Assembly: GCA_963718525.1 (NCBI GenBank)
Contig: OY970355.1
Coordinates: 2,208,001 to 2,272,000, forward strand
Direction of reading: 5' to 3'
Length of the DNA stretch: 64,000 nt
Source: Candidatus Dormiibacterota bacterium
GTDB taxonomy: Bacteria > Chloroflexota > Dormibacteria > Aeolococcales > Aeolococcaceae
This document shows, piece by piece, positions 4,739 through 39,835 of this stretch. The notes under the pieces are model-generated. The model had not been told where the DNA came from, searched no databases, and saw only the letters and a program-made list of their open reading frames with translations. Made by a program: the position numbers and the translations under genes. Numbering within the stretch: the stretch's first letter is position 1; each line of letters begins with the position of its first letter.

Positions 4739-5018
4739 TGTCCACGCGATTTCAAAGGAATCCATCACGCCTGCTCTAGTCGTCATTCCAACCGTTTCCC
4801 GACGAAAGCACTCTAAATCGAACTCAGCACGCGGCGGAAATAAGTGCTGGTCTGGGGGACCAGGGGTCGCAGGTTCGAGTCCTGTCTCCCCGATTCGCAG
4901 CACATTGCAGAGCAGGGCAGCCGTTTCCAACGGATTCCAATGGATTCCAGCTTGCAGGATTCATTCAGCGGGGACTAGTGCTCACTCTCTGATTGATGTT
5001 CTTTCCTGCAAAACCACT
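4739..5018 (+). repeat. att-like junction J1: left arm + tRNA-Pro 3' core + type A right arm
   Basis: CTAGTCGTCATTCCAACC...GAACTCA...GGAAATAAG, core 4847-4893, right arm TTCGCAGC...TTCCTGCAAAACCACT. Confidence 0.9.
4847..4893 (+). tRNA. tRNA-Pro(GGG) 3' fragment (att core, not a full gene)
   Basis: Anticodon arm CTGGT-CTGGGGG-ACCAG, T arm GCAGG-TTCGAGT-CCTGT, acceptor 3' strand CTCCCCGA; no D arm or 5' acceptor strand. Confidence 0.88.
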
Positions 5019-11357: not shown

Positions 11358-11626
11358 TGTCGAAGCGATTCCAGTGGATTCCATCAAACAAGCTCTAGTC
11401 GTCATTCCAACCATTTCCCACAAAACCACTCTAAATCGAACTCAGCACTCATCGGGAAATGAGGGCTAGTCTGGGGGACCAGGGGTCGCAGGTTCGAGTC
11501 CTGTCTCCCCGACGGACGCGCGATTTGATTCGCGGCGAGCGATTAAGGCACGTTGGGCACCGGCGGTGGAACGGATGTAGCGCTGTAACCAGGAATGATG
11601 GCTGTTCCTGCAAAAGGCATCATTCC
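11358..11626 (+). repeat. att-like junction J2 (type B right arm)
   Basis: Same left arm as J1; core 11466-11512; right arm CGGACGCGCGATTTGATTCGCGGCGAGCG...TTCCTGCAAAAGGC. Confidence 0.9.
11466..11512 (+). tRNA. tRNA-Pro(GGG) 3' fragment (att core)
   Basis: CTAGTCTGGGGGACCAGGGGTCGCAGGTTCGAGTCCTGTCTCCCCGA. Confidence 0.88.
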
Positions 11627-31279: not shown

Positions 31280-31638
31280 GTCTTTAGCTCCGGGTGGGCC
31301 GAATGGGAGCTCCTCGAAACGGCCTCAGAGCGCCTGTGGGGAGGGCGGTGAGGTCAAGCCACCTGAAGCCGGACGTGGTCTGAGATCGCCGTGGGTGCGG
31401 CTAATCGCGATCGGGGCGTGTAAGGCGAGCTGGCGCTTCCACTCCATCTAGGCCTACCAAGGGTCAAATCCTTCTTGCTACACCCCCTCTAGGCGCTGCG
31501 GAGGGTCGATTCGAATTCACCGAGCGGCAACGGTCATCCCATGCGCCCGTGGTGGCATCAGGACCGTGCGGGCGTGTTCGAGGTAAGAGCACAATGGGGA
31601 AGAAGCGATCTGGGGTACGCCCAATAGCCCTGCGTGGA

Positions 31639-31828
31639 TGTCGACGCGATTCCAGCGGATTCCATTACCCGACCTATTGTCGTCATTCCAACCATTTACC
31701 AACGAAAGCCCTTATAAGTCGCACTCACTCCGATCGCGAAATAGGTACTGGTCTGGGGGCCAGTGGTCGCAGGTTCGAGTCCTGTCTCCCCGATTCGCAG
31801 CCCATTGCACTGCAGTGAAGATGTTTTC
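31639..31828 (+). repeat. att-like junction J3 (degenerate core, short type A right arm)
   Basis: Left arm GTCGTCATTCCAACC; core 31748-31793 with a 1-nt deletion and one substitution; TTCGCAGCCCATTGCA. Confidence 0.87.
31748..31793 (+). tRNA. tRNA-Pro(GGG) 3' fragment, degenerate
   Basis: CTGGTCTGGGGGCCAGTGGTCGCAGGTTCGAGTCCTGTCTCCCCGA. Confidence 0.82.
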
Positions 31829-32701: not shown

Positions 32702-33136
32702 GGCTTCATTCTCCCTCGTGGTTGGCCGCTGGCATCGAGCCGAGCGATCGTCCCAAAAGTAGTTGCGGCGAATCACGACCGGTCGAGCCGACTTGCGGGG
32801 AAGGCGGGTTTCGATGGTGGAGCAGGGCGCCATGTCAACTCCCTTGAGAAGCGAGCTTGGTCTCGCTACGGCCAGGGTCGGAATACGAACCAGCATTGAC
32901 CTGGGGACCAGGTTTCGGGGCTCTGCACGAGGCGCGATACGACGTTTGTTCGTTGAAAGTCGGCTGGCGTCCAGGCGGGATTCGGACTTAGACGCTACCG
33001 AACGGCGGCCCATGGGTCCTGTCACCGGACCCGCAGCGGCCAAGAGTTTGACGGCGCCGACGGTCACTTCGGCGCGCGGGATGCCCGCGGACGAACGATC
33101 AGCCCGGAAGAGGCGATCAGTTCGGGGGGCGCTGGC

Positions 33137-33343
33137 TGTCGAAGCGAATCCACCGGATTCCAACAAGCACGATCTAGCCGTCATTCCAACCATTTCCCGA
33201 CGAAAGCCCTCCAACTCGAACTCAATCCGCATCGGGAAATAAGGACTAGTCTGGGGGACCAGGAGTAGCAGGTTCGAGTCCTGTCTCCCCGATTCGCAGC
33301 CCTTTGCAGGGCAGTGCAGCCTTGTCCAGCCAATTCCACCCCC
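33137..33343 (+). repeat. att-like junction J4; type A right arm interrupted by IS256
   Basis: Left arm + core 33246-33292 + TTCGCAGCCCTTTGCAGG; remainder of arm resumes after the IS. Confidence 0.9.
33246..33292 (+). tRNA. tRNA-Pro(GGG) 3' fragment
   Basis: CTAGTCTGGGGGACCAGGAGTAGCAGGTTCGAGTCCTGTCTCCCCGA. Confidence 0.82.
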
Positions 33344-34539
33344 AGTGATGTCCCGTAGTGTGGTGTAAATCCGGGGTGACCCCAGCGCTGCCGACGAGGT
33401 AGACAAAGAAGGCCACCGCGGAGTTCTCTTGGAAGCTCTTACCCAAACCAGGAGACCCACGATGGCCCAGAACAGGATGATGCCCCCGGCACTGCTCGAG
33501 CAACTCCAGGGCGCAGACACGGACGTGTTGCGGCGCGTCCTCGAACACGCTATGCAGCGCTTGATCGAAGCCGAGGCGTCCACCCAGATCGGCGCCGGCC
33601 CGCACGAGCGAGCTTCAACGCGCACCACGTACCGCAACGGCTATCGGGAGCGGATCCTCGACACCGGCTCGGGACGCCTCGAGCTGCAGATCCCCAAGCT
33701 GCGCACGGGGAGCTTCTTCCCGACCTTGCTCGAGCCGCGACGGCGTATTGATCGGGCCCTGCTGGCGGCGGTCCAGGAGGCCTACGTGCTCGGCATCAGC
33801 ACTCGCAAGGTCGACGATCTCATGGCTGCGCTGGGCGGCTGCAGCATCAGTCGCAGCGAGGTGAGCAGGATCTGCGCCCTGCTCGACGAGGAGCTCGCCG
33901 AGTTCCGGGAGCGCCCCCTCGATGAGCCGTACCCGTACGTGTGGTTCGACGCCACGTACGAGAAGGTGCGTCAGGGCGCCCGCATCGTCAGCCAGGCGGC
34001 GGTGGTGGCGGTGGGCGTGCGCGACACCGGCGAGAAGAGCGTGCTCGGCCTCGCCATTGGTGCCAGCGAGACCGAGGCCTTCTGGCTGGAGTTCTGCCGC
34101 AGCCTGGCCCGGCGCGGGCTGAGCGGCGTACAGCTGGTCATCTCCGACGCCCACGAAGGGCTGCGCAGTGCCTTGTCCCAGGTGTTCGCCGGCGCGACCT
34201 GGCAGCGCTGCAAGGTGCACTTCCTCCGCAACGTGGCCAGCGCGGTCCCCAAGCTGCACGCGCCGGCGGTGCTCGCGGTGGTGAAGTCGATCTTCCTGCA
34301 GCCCACTCGCGAGACTTCCCGTGACGCCGTGAACCACGCGCTCAGCGTCTTGGAGCCACGCTTCCCAACTGTGGCTGCCAAGCTCCGCGCCGCTGAGGCC
34401 GATGTGCTCGCCTATCTGGACTTCCCGGTCGACCACTGGCGCTCGATCTCTTCGACCAATGCCATCGAGCGCGTCAACGCCGAGCTCGATCGTCGCGCCA
34501 AGGTGGTGGGCATCTTCCTGCGTCTGTACGCTCTCCCGT

Positions 34540-34720
34540 GGCAGTGGCGGAAGCACCGCTGTTGCTGCGAGGCTCCCGTGGGGCCGAGGGTGACCCGGCA
34601 TTTTTCTGTCGAGCCCTCGGGCTCTGACCTGGTTAGGGCCAGTCCCCTCGGTCTTCGCGGGTGGCCGAGTGACCTCATAGCGGCGTGAATACTGAACGGC
34701 AGGAATGTCCGAGGCCATCC
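34540..34720 (+). ncRNA. Predicted IS110 bridge RNA
   Basis: 5' hairpin, target-binding loop and donor-binding loop with guide segments matching the target and the element ends (see findings); ends approximate. Confidence 0.72.
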
Positions 34721-34746
34721 ACCCATCAACACCACGGAGGGTCGGC

Positions 34747-35802
34747 ATGGTCATCATCGGCATCGATTGCCACACAAGGGTTCATGTGGCTGCAGCCATT
34801 GACGGATCGGGGCAGGTCTGTGCGCGCTTCACAGCGGGTGCCAAGGCTGAGGAGCTCGAAGCGCTCACAAGGTGGGCGTGCCAACAAGCAGCCGGCCTGA
34901 TCGCCGTCGAGGGCGCACGAGGCTTTGGCCTCGCGCTCACTCGATGCCTCCTCGCCGCTGGCTTGGAGGTCGTCGATGTCCCAACGCACATGACCGCTGA
35001 CGGGCGCCGTCAGAGCCGCCGTCCGGGAAAGGACGATGAGAGCGATGCGGTGGTCATCGCGCGAGTTGCACTACGTGAACACGACCTGCCGCGGTTGCGT
35101 CCGGCGCATCTTGACTCGGATCTCAAACTGCTGGTGGACGCACGCGATCAGGTTGTTGCAGAAGGCACTCGTGTACGCAACCGGCTGCATGCGCTGCTGC
35201 TCACCGTGTCGCCCGGCTACCGCGATCACACCGGCGCTCTGTCGAGCAAGCGCGCACTCATCGTCGCTCGTCGCTTGGTGCTCCGAGCACGAGCGGCAGA
35301 TCCGGTTCGCTGCCGCCTGGCCCTTGCAGCCATTCGCCAACTCCACGCCATCGATGCTGAAGCAGCCGGGCTGGAGGGCGAGATCAAACAAGCCGTGAGC
35401 GCAAGGCACCCGAAGCAGCTGCTCGCCATTTGCGGTGTGAGCACGCTGGTGGCCGGCAAGCTCCTCGGTGAGGCCCACGACATCACACGCTTCCCGACGG
35501 CGGCGTCGTTCGCAGCCCACGCTGGCGCCGCCCCGCTTCCGGCATCGAGCGGCGTCACGCGGCGACACCGTCTCAACCGAGGCGGCAACCGTCAACTCAA
35601 CCGAGCCCTCTTCACGATCGCCATGGTGCAGGCACGCTGGCACCCTGGAGCGGTCGCCTATCTGGAGCGAAAACGTGGCGAAGGCAAGCGACCCGCCGAA
35701 GCGCGACGCTGCCTCATGCGCCACCTTGCGGGTGTCGTCCACCGCGCCATGTTCCTCGACGCGACCGCGGTCAGCGCGAGTTCGGCCATGCCTGCCGCTT
35801 GA
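34747..35802 (+). CDS. IS110 family transposase / bridge recombinase
   Basis: DEDD RuvC (IGIDCH, AVEG, KDDESDA), C-terminal APLPASSG and RGGNRQLNRAL; GGAGG RBS before ATG 34747. Confidence 0.93.
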   Translation: MVIIGIDCHTRVHVAAAIDGSGQVCARFTAGAKAEELEALTRWACQQAAGLIAVEGARGFGLALTRCLLAAGLEVVDVPTHMTADGRRQSRRPGKDDESDAVVIARVALREHDLPRLRPAHLDSDLKLLVDARDQVVAEGTRVRNRLHALLLTVSPGYRDHTGALSSKRALIVARRLVLRARAADPVRCRLALAAIRQLHAIDAEAAGLEGEIKQAVSARHPKQLLAICGVSTLVAGKLLGEAHDITRFPTAASFAAHAGAAPLPASSGVTRRHRLNRGGNRQLNRALFTIAMVQARWHPGAVAYLERKRGEGKRPAEARRCLMRHLAGVVHRAMFLDATAVSASSAMPAA

Positions 35803-36044
35803 CATAGCGGCGCCCCAACAGCGCCTCACTGCTGCGGCTGTTCACCGCGGTGCTCCAGGACCAGCACGACGAGTGGCAGGACGGCCGCCGTCACTTCAGT
35901 CAGCAGTCGATGGCTCGCGTTTTGCACCCCGACGGTCCGCCCTTGCTCACCAACCCACTCACGGAGGGACTGGTCGCGTAGTTCACCGACGTTGTGAGAA
36001 CTCCACCGAATTCACACCACTACCGGGGACTTGACCCCACCCCC

Positions 36045-36122
36045 TTCCAACTTTCGGGGATCAGTCACTGTGCAGGGACTAGTCCTTATTCGCTAATTGA
36101 TGGCCTTTCCTGCAAAACCACT
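36045..36122 (+). repeat. Distal part of the J4 type A right arm
   Basis: GGGACTAGTCCTTATT...ATTGATG...TTTCCTGCAAAACCACT aligns with J1 4971-5018. Confidence 0.85.
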
Positions 36123-36342
36123 CTAATGTCGTGCGGCCAAACGGCGATGTCCCGAGCGGGGCGCGACGCTCGCTTCGGGCCATTGCTTGGCGCGCCGCGG
36201 TCGGAAATGCGGCTGCGACTGAACATCCGTTCACCCGGATTGAACGCCTTGATGAGTGACGCCAAGGCGACCGGAGTGATGCTCTAGCAACCGGCCCTAC
36301 CGTACTCGGCCTTAATCGGCGGCGAGAGCAAAGGAGGTAATC

Positions 36343-38037
36343 ATGGAACCTCACGATTGCCACCGGATCTGGAGGGGCAGGTCGCGTAAGTTCGCGGCTC
36401 TGGCCGCGGTAATGTTGGGGTCGGCGGTGGTGGGCGCAAGACCTGCCTCGGCGACGACATTCACTGTGTGCGGCAGTGGATGTGCTTACAGTCAGATTGG
36501 TGCTGCGGTCGCAGCTGCGAGCAGGGGCGACACAGTGAGCATCGGCCCTGGCAAATACGTCGGCGGTTTCACGATCGACCAAAGCGTGAGCCTCGTCGGC
36601 GCTGGCGCCCATGAGACGACGATCAGCGGCGGGGGGCCGGTGATCACGGTCGGGAAGTTCGGGGCCAAGACTGAGCCCACAGTCGCGCTCCGCGACCTAA
36701 CGATCACCGGTGGCGTGACGGCGTCGAGCCCGGTGTCGATTGCGTATGTCGCCAAAGCAGGAGTGCTTGCCCTAGGAGGGGGTATCTTCGTCCCGCCCGC
36801 CGCAAAGTTCGCCGCGGGCGCGACTTTCACGGTCAGCGACAGCGTCATCACGGGCAATATCGCCGCAGCGACCGCGTCCGTCGACGCCGGCTTCTCATGT
36901 GGGACGCACGACTGCCGATTCGCCATAGCCGGCGGTGGCGGGATCGACAACTGGGGCCTTCTGACGGTCGAGAACACGATCGTCAGCAACAACGAGTTGG
37001 CAGGAGCGGTCACGAGTGACGCCGACGGAGCCGGTATTTACACGCAGCAAGGCGCAATCACCCTGAAGAACAGCGTCGTGACCGGCAACCGTGCGATGGC
37101 GATCGCTCCGGACGGCCGCTTTGCCGAGGGCGCGGGCATCATGGTCGACACGACCTTCTCGGCCGGAGCTTGCACGCCCTGCACCCTGTCTGTTCAAAAC
37201 AGCATCGTGCGCGACAACAACTCAAGTCTCGTCAACAACACTCTGCCTTCCTCCGTGGGAGCGCAGTCTGGGATGAATGCCAACGCCGGCGGCATACATG
37301 TGGGTGACGGCATTCCCACGACGGTCAAGAACACGGCGATCGATGACAACTCAGCGACTGCAATCGATCGACGAGGCGAGGCGCTCGGCATCGACGCCGG
37401 CATGATCGTCGGGTACAGTCCGCTCATCATGCAGAACACTCAGATCGACGACAACCGGTCGACGACGACAGTGCTGACTTCGACCGATGTGGGGCCAGCA
37501 GGCAGCGCTCTCGAACTCGATGGGGGCGGCACGATCAGCGGCACGAGCATCGATGACAACCTCGCGATCTCAACAAGTTCGGGTGGCTTAGCCGACACGA
37601 ACGGTGGCTTGGCCATTTTCTACTTTGGCAATCTCGGCGGGGCGCAGCTAGTGACCGTGCGAGACAGTGATATCAGCGGCAATGTCACCGAGTCGTTCAG
37701 CAAGACAGGCTCAGCCCAGATCGAGGGCGGTGCGGTCTTCAACAACAGCTTGCTCGTGATGCGCAACGATCGCGTGAGCGACAACGTCGGGCGAGCGGAG
37801 GCGCCGACCGGTGTGGCCCAAGGGGGAGGCACCTGGAACGGGGTCGACGCGAGCACGGGCGCCAGCCCTCCGGCTCAGCTGACCCTCGAGAACACGAGCG
37901 TCACCCACAACGCCCTCGAAGGAGGCGCAGGCGTGACTCTTCAAGGCGGTGGCATCTTCACGGAGTCTCCGGCAACGCTCACGCTCACCAACACGCAAAT
38001 CGCGTTCAACCGCCCGGACCAGTGCTTCGGGTGCTGA
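36343..38037 (+). CDS. Secreted right-handed beta-helix (pectin-lyase-like) protein
   Basis: Signal peptide ending PASA; repeated GGGI and S-x-I-x-x-N motifs; GGAGGT RBS. Confidence 0.75.
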   Translation: MEPHDCHRIWRGRSRKFAALAAVMLGSAVVGARPASATTFTVCGSGCAYSQIGAAVAAASRGDTVSIGPGKYVGGFTIDQSVSLVGAGAHETTISGGGPVITVGKFGAKTEPTVALRDLTITGGVTASSPVSIAYVAKAGVLALGGGIFVPPAAKFAAGATFTVSDSVITGNIAAATASVDAGFSCGTHDCRFAIAGGGGIDNWGLLTVENTIVSNNELAGAVTSDADGAGIYTQQGAITLKNSVVTGNRAMAIAPDGRFAEGAGIMVDTTFSAGACTPCTLSVQNSIVRDNNSSLVNNTLPSSVGAQSGMNANAGGIHVGDGIPTTVKNTAIDDNSATAIDRRGEALGIDAGMIVGYSPLIMQNTQIDDNRSTTTVLTSTDVGPAGSALELDGGGTISGTSIDDNLAISTSSGGLADTNGGLAIFYFGNLGGAQLVTVRDSDISGNVTESFSKTGSAQIEGGAVFNNSLLVMRNDRVSDNVGRAEAPTGVAQGGGTWNGVDASTGASPPAQLTLENTSVTHNALEGGAGVTLQGGGIFTESPATLTLTNTQIAFNRPDQCFGC

Positions 38038-39559: not shown

Positions 39560-39835
39560 TTTCTTCGCGAATCAAATGGATTCCAATAGCCACGGTCTAG
39601 TCGTCATTCCAACCAATTCGCTACGAAAGCCCTCTAAGTCGAACTCACCCTGAATCAGGAAATAAGGACTGGTCTGGGGGACCAGGGGTCGCAGGTTCGA
39701 GTCCTGTCTCCCCGACGGACGCGCAAGTTGAATTCACAGCGAGCGGTTGCGCGGCGCGTCAGGCGCCCGTTCGGTTAGCGGGGTATACTGGTCTAGTCAG
39801 GAACAATGCCTTTCCCTGCAAAAGGCCTTATTACC
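39560..39835 (+). repeat. att-like junction J5 (type B right arm)
   Basis: Left arm CTAGTCGTCATTCCAACC; core 39669-39715; CGGACGCGCAAGTTGAATTCACAGCGAGCG...CCTGCAAAAGGC. Confidence 0.9.
39669..39715 (+). tRNA. tRNA-Pro(GGG) 3' fragment
   Basis: Identical to the J1 core. Confidence 0.88.

Follow-up and report, generated by a model that had tools for sequence, protein, structure and literature searches.

The element examined here, an insertion sequence of the IS110 group, lies within the transposase gene of another mobile element, and the question raised by this locus is whether its long left end encodes the RNA that brought it there. The window, i.e. the whole stretch of DNA that was analysed, comprises 64,000 nucleotides, and all sequence strings given for the region in a preliminary description were confirmed at their positions against the window sequence. 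We are highly confident that the left end specifies an IS621-type bridge RNA, extending roughly from 34520/34537 to 34720, which would steer the recombinase to a short run of codons in IS256-family transposase genes.

An IS110-group element within an IS256 transposase gene

The predicted recombinase was matched by PF01548 (DEDD_Tnp_IS110) with 88.3 bits against a cut-off of 29, by PF02371 (Transposase_20, the C-terminal Tnp domain) with 69.7 bits against a cut-off of 21.3, and by the NCBIfam model NF033542, 'IS110 family RNA-guided transposase', with 164.5 bits against a cut-off of 140. Five relatives of 59-62% identity show no change at residues D7, E55, D97, D100 and S268, and a phmmer search of the PDB aligned S268 opposite the catalytic-site serine of the Y-E-S-G motif in the solved IS621 and ISCro4 transposases. 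The preliminary description had taken the recombinase to be apparently intact, and the presence of both IS110 domains together with the invariance of the catalytic residues among relatives points the same way. The organization of the element (Table 1) is also that of the group: the left end is long (228 nt) and the right end short (10 nt), there are no terminal inverted repeats, a short core stands at both junctions, and the empty site is scarless. In the IS1111 group the end pattern is the reverse, with a short left end and a long right end. A long left end combined with a short right end is the IS110-group pattern (PMC11208160), and the element is an IS110-group insertion sequence with a DEDD/Ser recombinase.

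Table 1. Window coordinates of the IS110-group element, its predicted RNA and its IS256 host
Feature	Position	Strand	Remarks
IS256-family element hosting the IS110 insertion	33344..36043	+	limits drawn from homology between IS256 copies of this genome
5' part of the interrupted IS256 transposase gene	33429..34517	+	ends ...V-V-G-I-F
Left target (LT), GGCATCTT	34509..34516	+	
Left CC core copy	34517..34518	+	empty sites have four Cs, the occupied site 2+4
IS110-group element, 1296 bp including one core copy	34519..35814	+	
Left end (LE), 228 nt	34519..34746	+	starts with TGCGT, the right donor (RD); predicted to encode the bridge RNA
5' stem-loop	34537..34570	+	MFE fold; hairpin kept in relatives despite differing sequence
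Helix 1, 5' strand, closing the target-binding loop	34580..34594	+	pairs with 34642-34655
Left target guide (LTG), GGCAUUUU-UC (DNA GGCATTTTTC)	34597..34606	+	same sense as LT + core
Helix 2, hairpin inside the target-binding loop	34608..34628	+	34608-15 pairs with 34620-28
Right target guide (RTG), GUUAGGG	34632..34638	+	antisense to core + RT (CC-CCAAC)
Candidate handshake guide, target loop (CC)	34639..34640	+	first C complementary to last LD base (G)
Helix 1, 3' strand	34642..34655	+	
Helix 3, 5' strand, closing the donor-binding loop	34659..34673	+	pairs with 34707-34720
Left donor guide (LDG), CAUAGCGGCG	34676..34685	+	same sequence as the final 10 bases of the element
Right donor guide (RDG), ACGGCAGG	34696..34703	+	antisense to CC-TGC-GT with one bulged G
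Candidate handshake guide, donor loop (AA)	34704..34705	+	complementary to last two LT bases (TT)
Helix 3, 3' strand	34707..34720	+	
IS110 recombinase gene, 351 aa	34747..35802	+	DEDD RuvC-like domain + Tnp domain with conserved Ser
TTGACA, -35-like hexamer in the right end	35799..35804	+	in the circle it would lie 18 nt upstream of TACGCT (34527-32, LE)
Right end = left donor (LD), CATAGCGGCG	35803..35812	+	10 nt, after stop codon 35800-02
Right CC core copy	35813..35814	+	CC in 44/44 right-junction rows
3' part of the interrupted IS256 transposase gene	35814..35981	+	P-N-S-A-S-L-L-R-L..., 55 aa + stop
Right target (RT), CCAAC	35815..35819	+	

Without its IS110 passenger the host IS256 element would measure approximately 1402 bp, and the 5' part of its transposase is matched by Pfam Transposase_mut (Mutator-type) with 385.6 bits. 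The insertion point falls between the Phe and Pro codons of the IS256 transposase motif V-G-I-F|P-N, the Phe codon (34515-17) including the core's initial base. The left junction reads GGCATCTT-CC-TGCGTC and the right junction CATAGCGGCG-CC-CCAAC (GGCG-CC-CCAAC). Since the unoccupied IS256 copies of the same genome read GGCATCTTCCCCAAC at two places and GGCATCTTTCCCAAC at one, both the CC core, which the preliminary description had proposed, and the element boundaries hold, and it follows that the insertion duplicated the CC dinucleotide and nothing else. Four soil-metagenome runs (probably DNA) were compared with the element in the form of contigs; they contain an approximately 97%-identical relative as well as empty-site joints, in which 34516 is joined to 35813 with exactly 1296 bases skipped and two letters fitting either side.

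Two further observations concern the host and its surroundings. The IS256 reading frame continues for 57 codons into the IS110 left end (33429-34688), giving an open frame of 419 aa compared with about 418 aa for the intact protein, a near match in length that is probably coincidental. Just left of the IS256 copy, at 33131-33340, lies a 150-200-nt sequence that recurs, with 79-92% identity, in at least 11 places, every copy being on the + strand within positions 2177152-2330560 of the genome (G000); further copies in the window are found at approximately 4739-4939, 11358-11512, 31635-31820 and 39567-39715.

The genome holds only two IS110-family copies, both of them in IS256. The second (G000 2470512-2471808) is 100% identical over 1297 bases and is carried by an IS256 variant 94% identical to the first host, and the flanks outside IS256 are unrelated between the two. 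In the second host the Phe codon is TTT, the left junction reads GGCATCTT-TC and the right junction has CC. Identical IS110 copies in hosts that differ by about 6%, each left junction bearing the Phe codon of its own host (TTC vs. TTT), fit two separate insertions, and the pattern is compatible with two recent guided insertions in this genome. One may argue instead that both RNA and element are real but inactive here, the two copies being due to duplication or gene conversion, given that there are just two of them, that three suitable empty IS256 sites, at G000 739010, 742012 and 2183347, remain unfilled in the genome and that no circle junction was seen in the soil-metagenome contigs compared. 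We consider this unlikely, as gene conversion or duplication is at odds with identical passengers in hosts some 6% apart, each with its own Phe codon at the left junction, and inactivity with the intact reading frame and catalytic residues. Two separate guided insertions are thus the reading that we prefer.

Structure and guides of the predicted left-end RNA

Helices were predicted by RNAalifold on 24 distinct homologous left ends, and the layout that emerges, a 5' stem-loop followed by a target-binding and a donor-binding loop, is that expected of a bridge RNA. The 5' hairpin noted earlier at 34541-34565 is present and extends to 34537-34570 in the MFE fold; a hairpin of divergent sequence occurs here in nearly all of 22 distinct left ends. 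Downstream of it, and in agreement with the preliminary description, the target-loop stem GGCCGAGGG/CCCTCGGTC encloses GGCATTTTTC (34597-34606), a GAGCC/GGCTC hairpin (34611-15/34620-24) and GTTAGGG (34632-38), and the donor-loop stem GGTGGCC/GGCCATC (34660-66/34713-19) encloses CATAGCGGCG (34676-85), identical to 35803-12, and GCAGG (34699-34703). A loop motif, GUGAC...GUCC, frames the target-binding and the donor-binding loops alike.

Folding and covariance analysis of homologous left ends had been proposed as a check, and the outcome was clear: the three helices are kept in the 24 sequences with 97.7% of cells paired, and 15 of the 34 pairs are changed on both sides (seven of 14 in helix 1, three of eight in helix 2 and five of 12 in helix 3 carrying compensatory changes). 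Of 500 shuffles, none attained the paired share of the helices, the numbers of pairs changed on both sides or the covariation score, and two attained the number of further pair types. When the 3' partners were slid by 1-3 columns as a control, pairing was 37-52% and compensatory pairs numbered at most five. The left ends are 78-80% identical by column among relatives with about 60% protein identity. For the element's left end taken whole, the MFE fold was no better than shuffles (z = -1.2), hence single-sequence folding does not carry the case. A scan of window positions 33000-37000 with Rfam 15 gave no family above threshold and a sub-threshold match to CcsR1 inside the recombinase gene only; for the left-end region this blank shows only that no curated family reached threshold.

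The four guides had been correctly placed in the preliminary description, but at two points the pairing departs from what complete complementarity would require: the invariant UG that follows the LDG (34686-87), i.e. its core positions, does not match the CC core, and position 4 of the RTG, an A in most members, is mismatched to every target base observed (C, G or A). In the window's element the latter appears as a single A:C mismatch, opposite the third base of the Pro codon. The LTG differs from its own left junction, GGCATCTT-CC, at two positions, each a U opposite a bottom-strand G, so that the earlier statement that both differences are U:G-compatible proved correct; against the left junction of the second copy (GGCATCTT-TC) it matches at nine of 10 positions, and in most members the A at LTG position 3 is a mismatch. 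With respect to the core, the GG of both RTG and RDG matches CC, and the UC of the LTG corresponds exactly to TC and to CC via one U:G wobble, the first core position being U in LTG and LDG alike. In all 19 rows with data the last LD base is complemented by the C that follows the RTG, and in 23 of 24 rows the last LT base is complemented by the A that follows the RDG; the second handshake positions are mostly unpaired.

To gauge the matches against chance, 5000 dinucleotide shuffles of the left end were run on the window alone. An exact 10-mer donor match was seen in none of them, nor were all four guide matches together. The left-target match with wobble (tested as an 11-mer) was, on the other hand, reached in 245 of 5000 shuffles, the right-donor match (6 of 7 on CCTGCGT) in 1714 and the 6/7 right-target match in 2707. 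Individually, therefore, three of the four matches are not beyond chance and only the 10-nt donor match is. Judged by the window on its own, the LTG match ranks as marginal, and those of RTG and RDG do not exceed chance. The case rests on homologues, not on the single sequence.

Two observations on related motifs may be added. The TTGAC adjoining the LD is present in 20/20 distinct junction rows and a TANNNT at 18 nt in 4/20 (the window's clade only), which makes a junction promoter plausible for the window's element but not in general. The exact 10-nt LTG sequence also occurs, unoccupied, at G000:C1:1528393-1528407 (GGCATTTTTCCCAGC), where the right half is one base off CCAAC.

Covariation of guides with ends and insertion sites among relatives

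Relatives were collected as nine loci from a protein-guided scan of species genomes and 51 loci from a metagenome scan. When the left end was compared by BLASTN with 400 further genomes from the phylum, two matches were returned, a complete element within an IS256 gene (G293) and a match of 32 nt (G139); the element is sparse in the 400 phylum genomes searched.

The donor guides follow the element ends closely. In 18 of the 19 rows having both, the LDG is identical to the final 9-10 bases of the element, the remaining locus (L017) having one base different, and in one clade a change from AUAG to AGAG in the RNA goes together with ATAG to AGAG in the right end. The RDG is ACGGCAGG where the left end begins TGCGT and ACGACAGG where it begins TGTGT, without exception, so that a G-to-A change in the RDG accompanies a C-to-T change in the left end. 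Elements with the switched pair form two separate, well-supported clades on the recombinase tree, and the switch arose twice independently. This covariation of the donor guides with the element ends, along with helices that carry compensatory changes, supports the earlier proposal of an IS110 bridge RNA with a target and a donor loop.

Comparison of other insertion sites with the guides, also proposed at the outset, gave the same IS256 site in nearly all cases. The second genomic copy and the relatives lie at GG[GC]AT[CT]TT-(C/T)C-CC[AG]AC inside IS256-family transposase genes, always in one orientation. VGIF closes the left flank in 26 of 31 rows, and the right flank opens with P-N or P-D in 42 of 45, most of these continuing in the IS256-type ...R-L-V-G-A-V-L; the GIFPN codons of IS256 transposases, tentatively named as the target in the preliminary description, are thus confirmed as the common insertion site. 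Where comparable, the host proteins are only 39-54% identical to the window's copy, which indicates many separate insertions into different members of the IS256 family. Guide positions that vary among the elements, or are U, face third codon positions (LTG 3, 6 and 9; RTG 4).

Several loci depart from this site. L023 is retargeted, L038 has a left target that matches its LTG poorly, and L041 reads V-S-I-F. There is a one-base gain at the left junction of L022 (ggcatcttt-CC) and a one-base loss at that of L057 (ggcattt-CC), which may be imprecise events or assembly errors. The right flanks of L017 and L025 diverge after P-N, and L059 and L060 are right-end-only fragments with other flanks in which the guides are not readable.

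Could the left end be mainly a 5' leader that controls translation or stability of the recombinase, its matches being by-products of common descent? The ribosome-binding site and start codon of the recombinase do lie directly after helix 3, and most relatives share one target, for which reason the agreement of guide and target among those relatives is not independent evidence. Such a leader would not account for loops that differ in step where the target differs (L023 and the clade of L043, L044 and L049), for an RD/RDG switch that arose twice, or for the many separate insertions implied by hosts of 39-54% identity, and we regard it as exceedingly improbable. A guide RNA is the reading that we favor.

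L023 is the decisive case and a natural retargeting event. With 66% protein identity, it is the only full-length relative at an unrelated, non-IS256 site: its left flank ends ggggtgtt-CC and its right junction reads CC-taaac. Its guides have changed to its own flanks, the LTG being GGGGUGUUUC and the RTG GUUUAGG, which matches its right junction at seven of seven positions, and five guide positions have changed together with five positions of the target, every one of them with the proper sense. In L017 the LTG matches its own left junction at 10/10 positions. The distant clade of L043, L044 and L049 (48-53% protein identity) scores 46-54 bits on the covariance model built from the 24 sequences, and its loop sequences differ from those of the other relatives and match the clade's own flanks and right end. 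The proposal withstood the refutation named in the preliminary description, which would have been insertion of other copies at unrelated sites or a lack of guide-target covariation among homologues.

Some features of these loci deserve mention in their own right. To the right of L023 there is a tRNA-like T-arm/acceptor remnant and to the left there are four GTGGACG repeats (L023:150-256, L023:1555-1600), and its surroundings resemble the edge of an integrated element. A tRNA gene as the L023 target was considered and rejected, since ARAGORN called no such gene either in the locus or in an empty site built by script, and only a T-arm-like remnant is present; an Rfam 15 scan of L023 gave a weak tRNA-Sec-like match only. 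In the distant clade the RNA scaffold lies at L043:288-447, L044:1321-1479 and L049:92-251, the junctions have TG on the right and GG on the left, and the core assignment is ambiguous; in L043 the left junction bears one additional G and the right end is divergent beyond TTGACAAGAT.

It is also conceivable that the matching strings act as DNA, the copy of the right end within the left end and the target-like strings being subterminal binding sites of the recombinase with no guide RNA involved. The LD/LDG direct repeat covaries, as a pair of protein-binding sites also would. The strings are found, however, in internal loops closed by helices with compensatory changes, and the compensatory pairing of the enclosing helices is explained only by RNA or a single-strand structure. 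Moreover, RTG and RDG are antisense and LTG and LDG sense, as in the solved IS621 complex, the retargeting of L023 alters both loop halves in the right senses, and the protein belongs to a family with demonstrated RNA guidance. Keeping these points in mind, we hold DNA-level recognition alone to be very improbable and retain the bridge RNA as our interpretation. The anatomy of the element, its helices, the covariation of guides with target and donor, the site specificity and the recent copying in the genome are established in the present analysis.

A separate observation concerns the core. Where the IS256 Phe codon is TTT (the second genomic copy, L002, and L016, L017 and L021/L050), the left junction keeps the TC core of the target; the right junction has the CC of the donor in every row, and no TC product was seen there. 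Both junctions look top-strand derived, and this pattern may bear on how core mismatches are resolved.

Proposed mechanism, host specificity and comparison with known systems

By analogy with work on IS621 and ISCro4, from which transcription, RNA-protein binding and catalysis are extrapolated, the element would excise as a circle, after which the recombinase would bind the bridge RNA. The first internal loop would then read the target, which would be the codon string G-I-F-P-N of IS256-family (Mutator-type) transposase genes, and the second would read the circle junction, with strand exchange taking place at the CC core. Because G-I-F-P-N is conserved in IS256-family genes, the element lands within other insertion sequences, whose transposase gene it interrupts 55 codons short of the end.

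We tentatively suggest, as a possibility to which we give somewhat less than even weight, that this IS110 clade is a dedicated hyperparasite of IS256-family insertion sequences, which follows a strategy like that of homing endonucleases and has its guides fixed on the protein-constrained G-I-F-P-N. If so, an IS256 host could change the target string only synonymously, and the guide bases that face third codon positions would be wobble-tolerant or indifferent (LTG position 9 being an invariant U, position 6 a U in the window's element and RTG position 4 A/G). Tolerance at third codon positions would allow one RNA to recognize IS256 genes that are only 39-54% identical. IS256 would then serve as a harmless landing pad and a vehicle, with its transposase gene split. 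In the literature searched we found no report of an IS110 element aimed at IS256 genes, and the accessible part of PMC2516522 has nothing on such targeting; the target tables of PMC11208160 or ISfinder may already list it. The preference of one insertion sequence for the coding sequence of a different IS family is relevant to the ways in which mobile elements restrain or make use of one another.

The bridge RNA and recombinase of IS621 from E. coli are described by Durrant et al. 2024 (PMC11208160) and Hiraizumi et al. 2024 (PMC11208158), the latter of which names the layout of 5' stem-loop, target-binding loop and donor-binding loop. The window's element resembles IS621 in the position of the RNA, which the long left end encodes upstream of the DEDD/Ser recombinase, in the order of stem-loop, target-binding loop and donor-binding loop, in the sense orientation of LTG and LDG and the antisense orientation of RTG and RDG, and in a 2-nt core common to target and donor. 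RDG pairing is discontiguous in both, by a bulged base here and by the flipped-out U159/U160 in IS621. Positions complementary to the partner DNA correspond to the handshake-guide rule given for IS621, according to which the bases next to RTG and RDG are complementary to position 7 of the partner DNA (PMC11208158), and a -35-like hexamer in the right end adjoins the donor, where IS621 has a -35 box.

The two systems nevertheless differ in a number of respects. The proteins are distant, phmmer aligning the Tnp domain only (E = 3.8e-6); the best match among solved structures is the ISCro4 transposase (PDB 9t56), with E = 1.3e-7 for the same Tnp domain, residues 205-334 only. The core is CC here and CT in IS621, and its second base is C, whereas a T at this position is reported to be almost invariant in IS621 relatives (PMC11208158). 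The RTG has 7 nt rather than 4, and the UG at the core positions of the LDG does not match the core, whereas in IS621 pairing to both core strands is strongly preferred (PMC11208160). The target is an IS256 transposase coding motif instead of a REP element, and the window's element, in contrast to IS621, is known from sequence alone.

Site-specific insertion into another mobile element also occurs in other IS110-family elements, and in this respect the present one resembles them. In those elements, however, the guide RNA resides in the right end, the subterminal inverted repeats are long and the targets are terminal repeats, whereas here the RNA lies in the left end, the right end is only 10 nt long and the target is a transposase coding motif. 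The mechanism has been known since 2024, and the window's element is a clear further example of it, not a new mechanism; targeting of IS256 is a point of natural history that leaves the known mechanism unchanged. The CC core, the 8+2-nt LTG, the 7-nt RTG, the natural retargeting in L023 and the donor-guide switches, which arose twice independently, set this system apart from IS621 and make it worth comparing where design rules for bridge recombinases are concerned, for example with regard to the core bases that are permitted, the guide positions at which mismatches are tolerated and the reason for a U at the first core position in both left guides.
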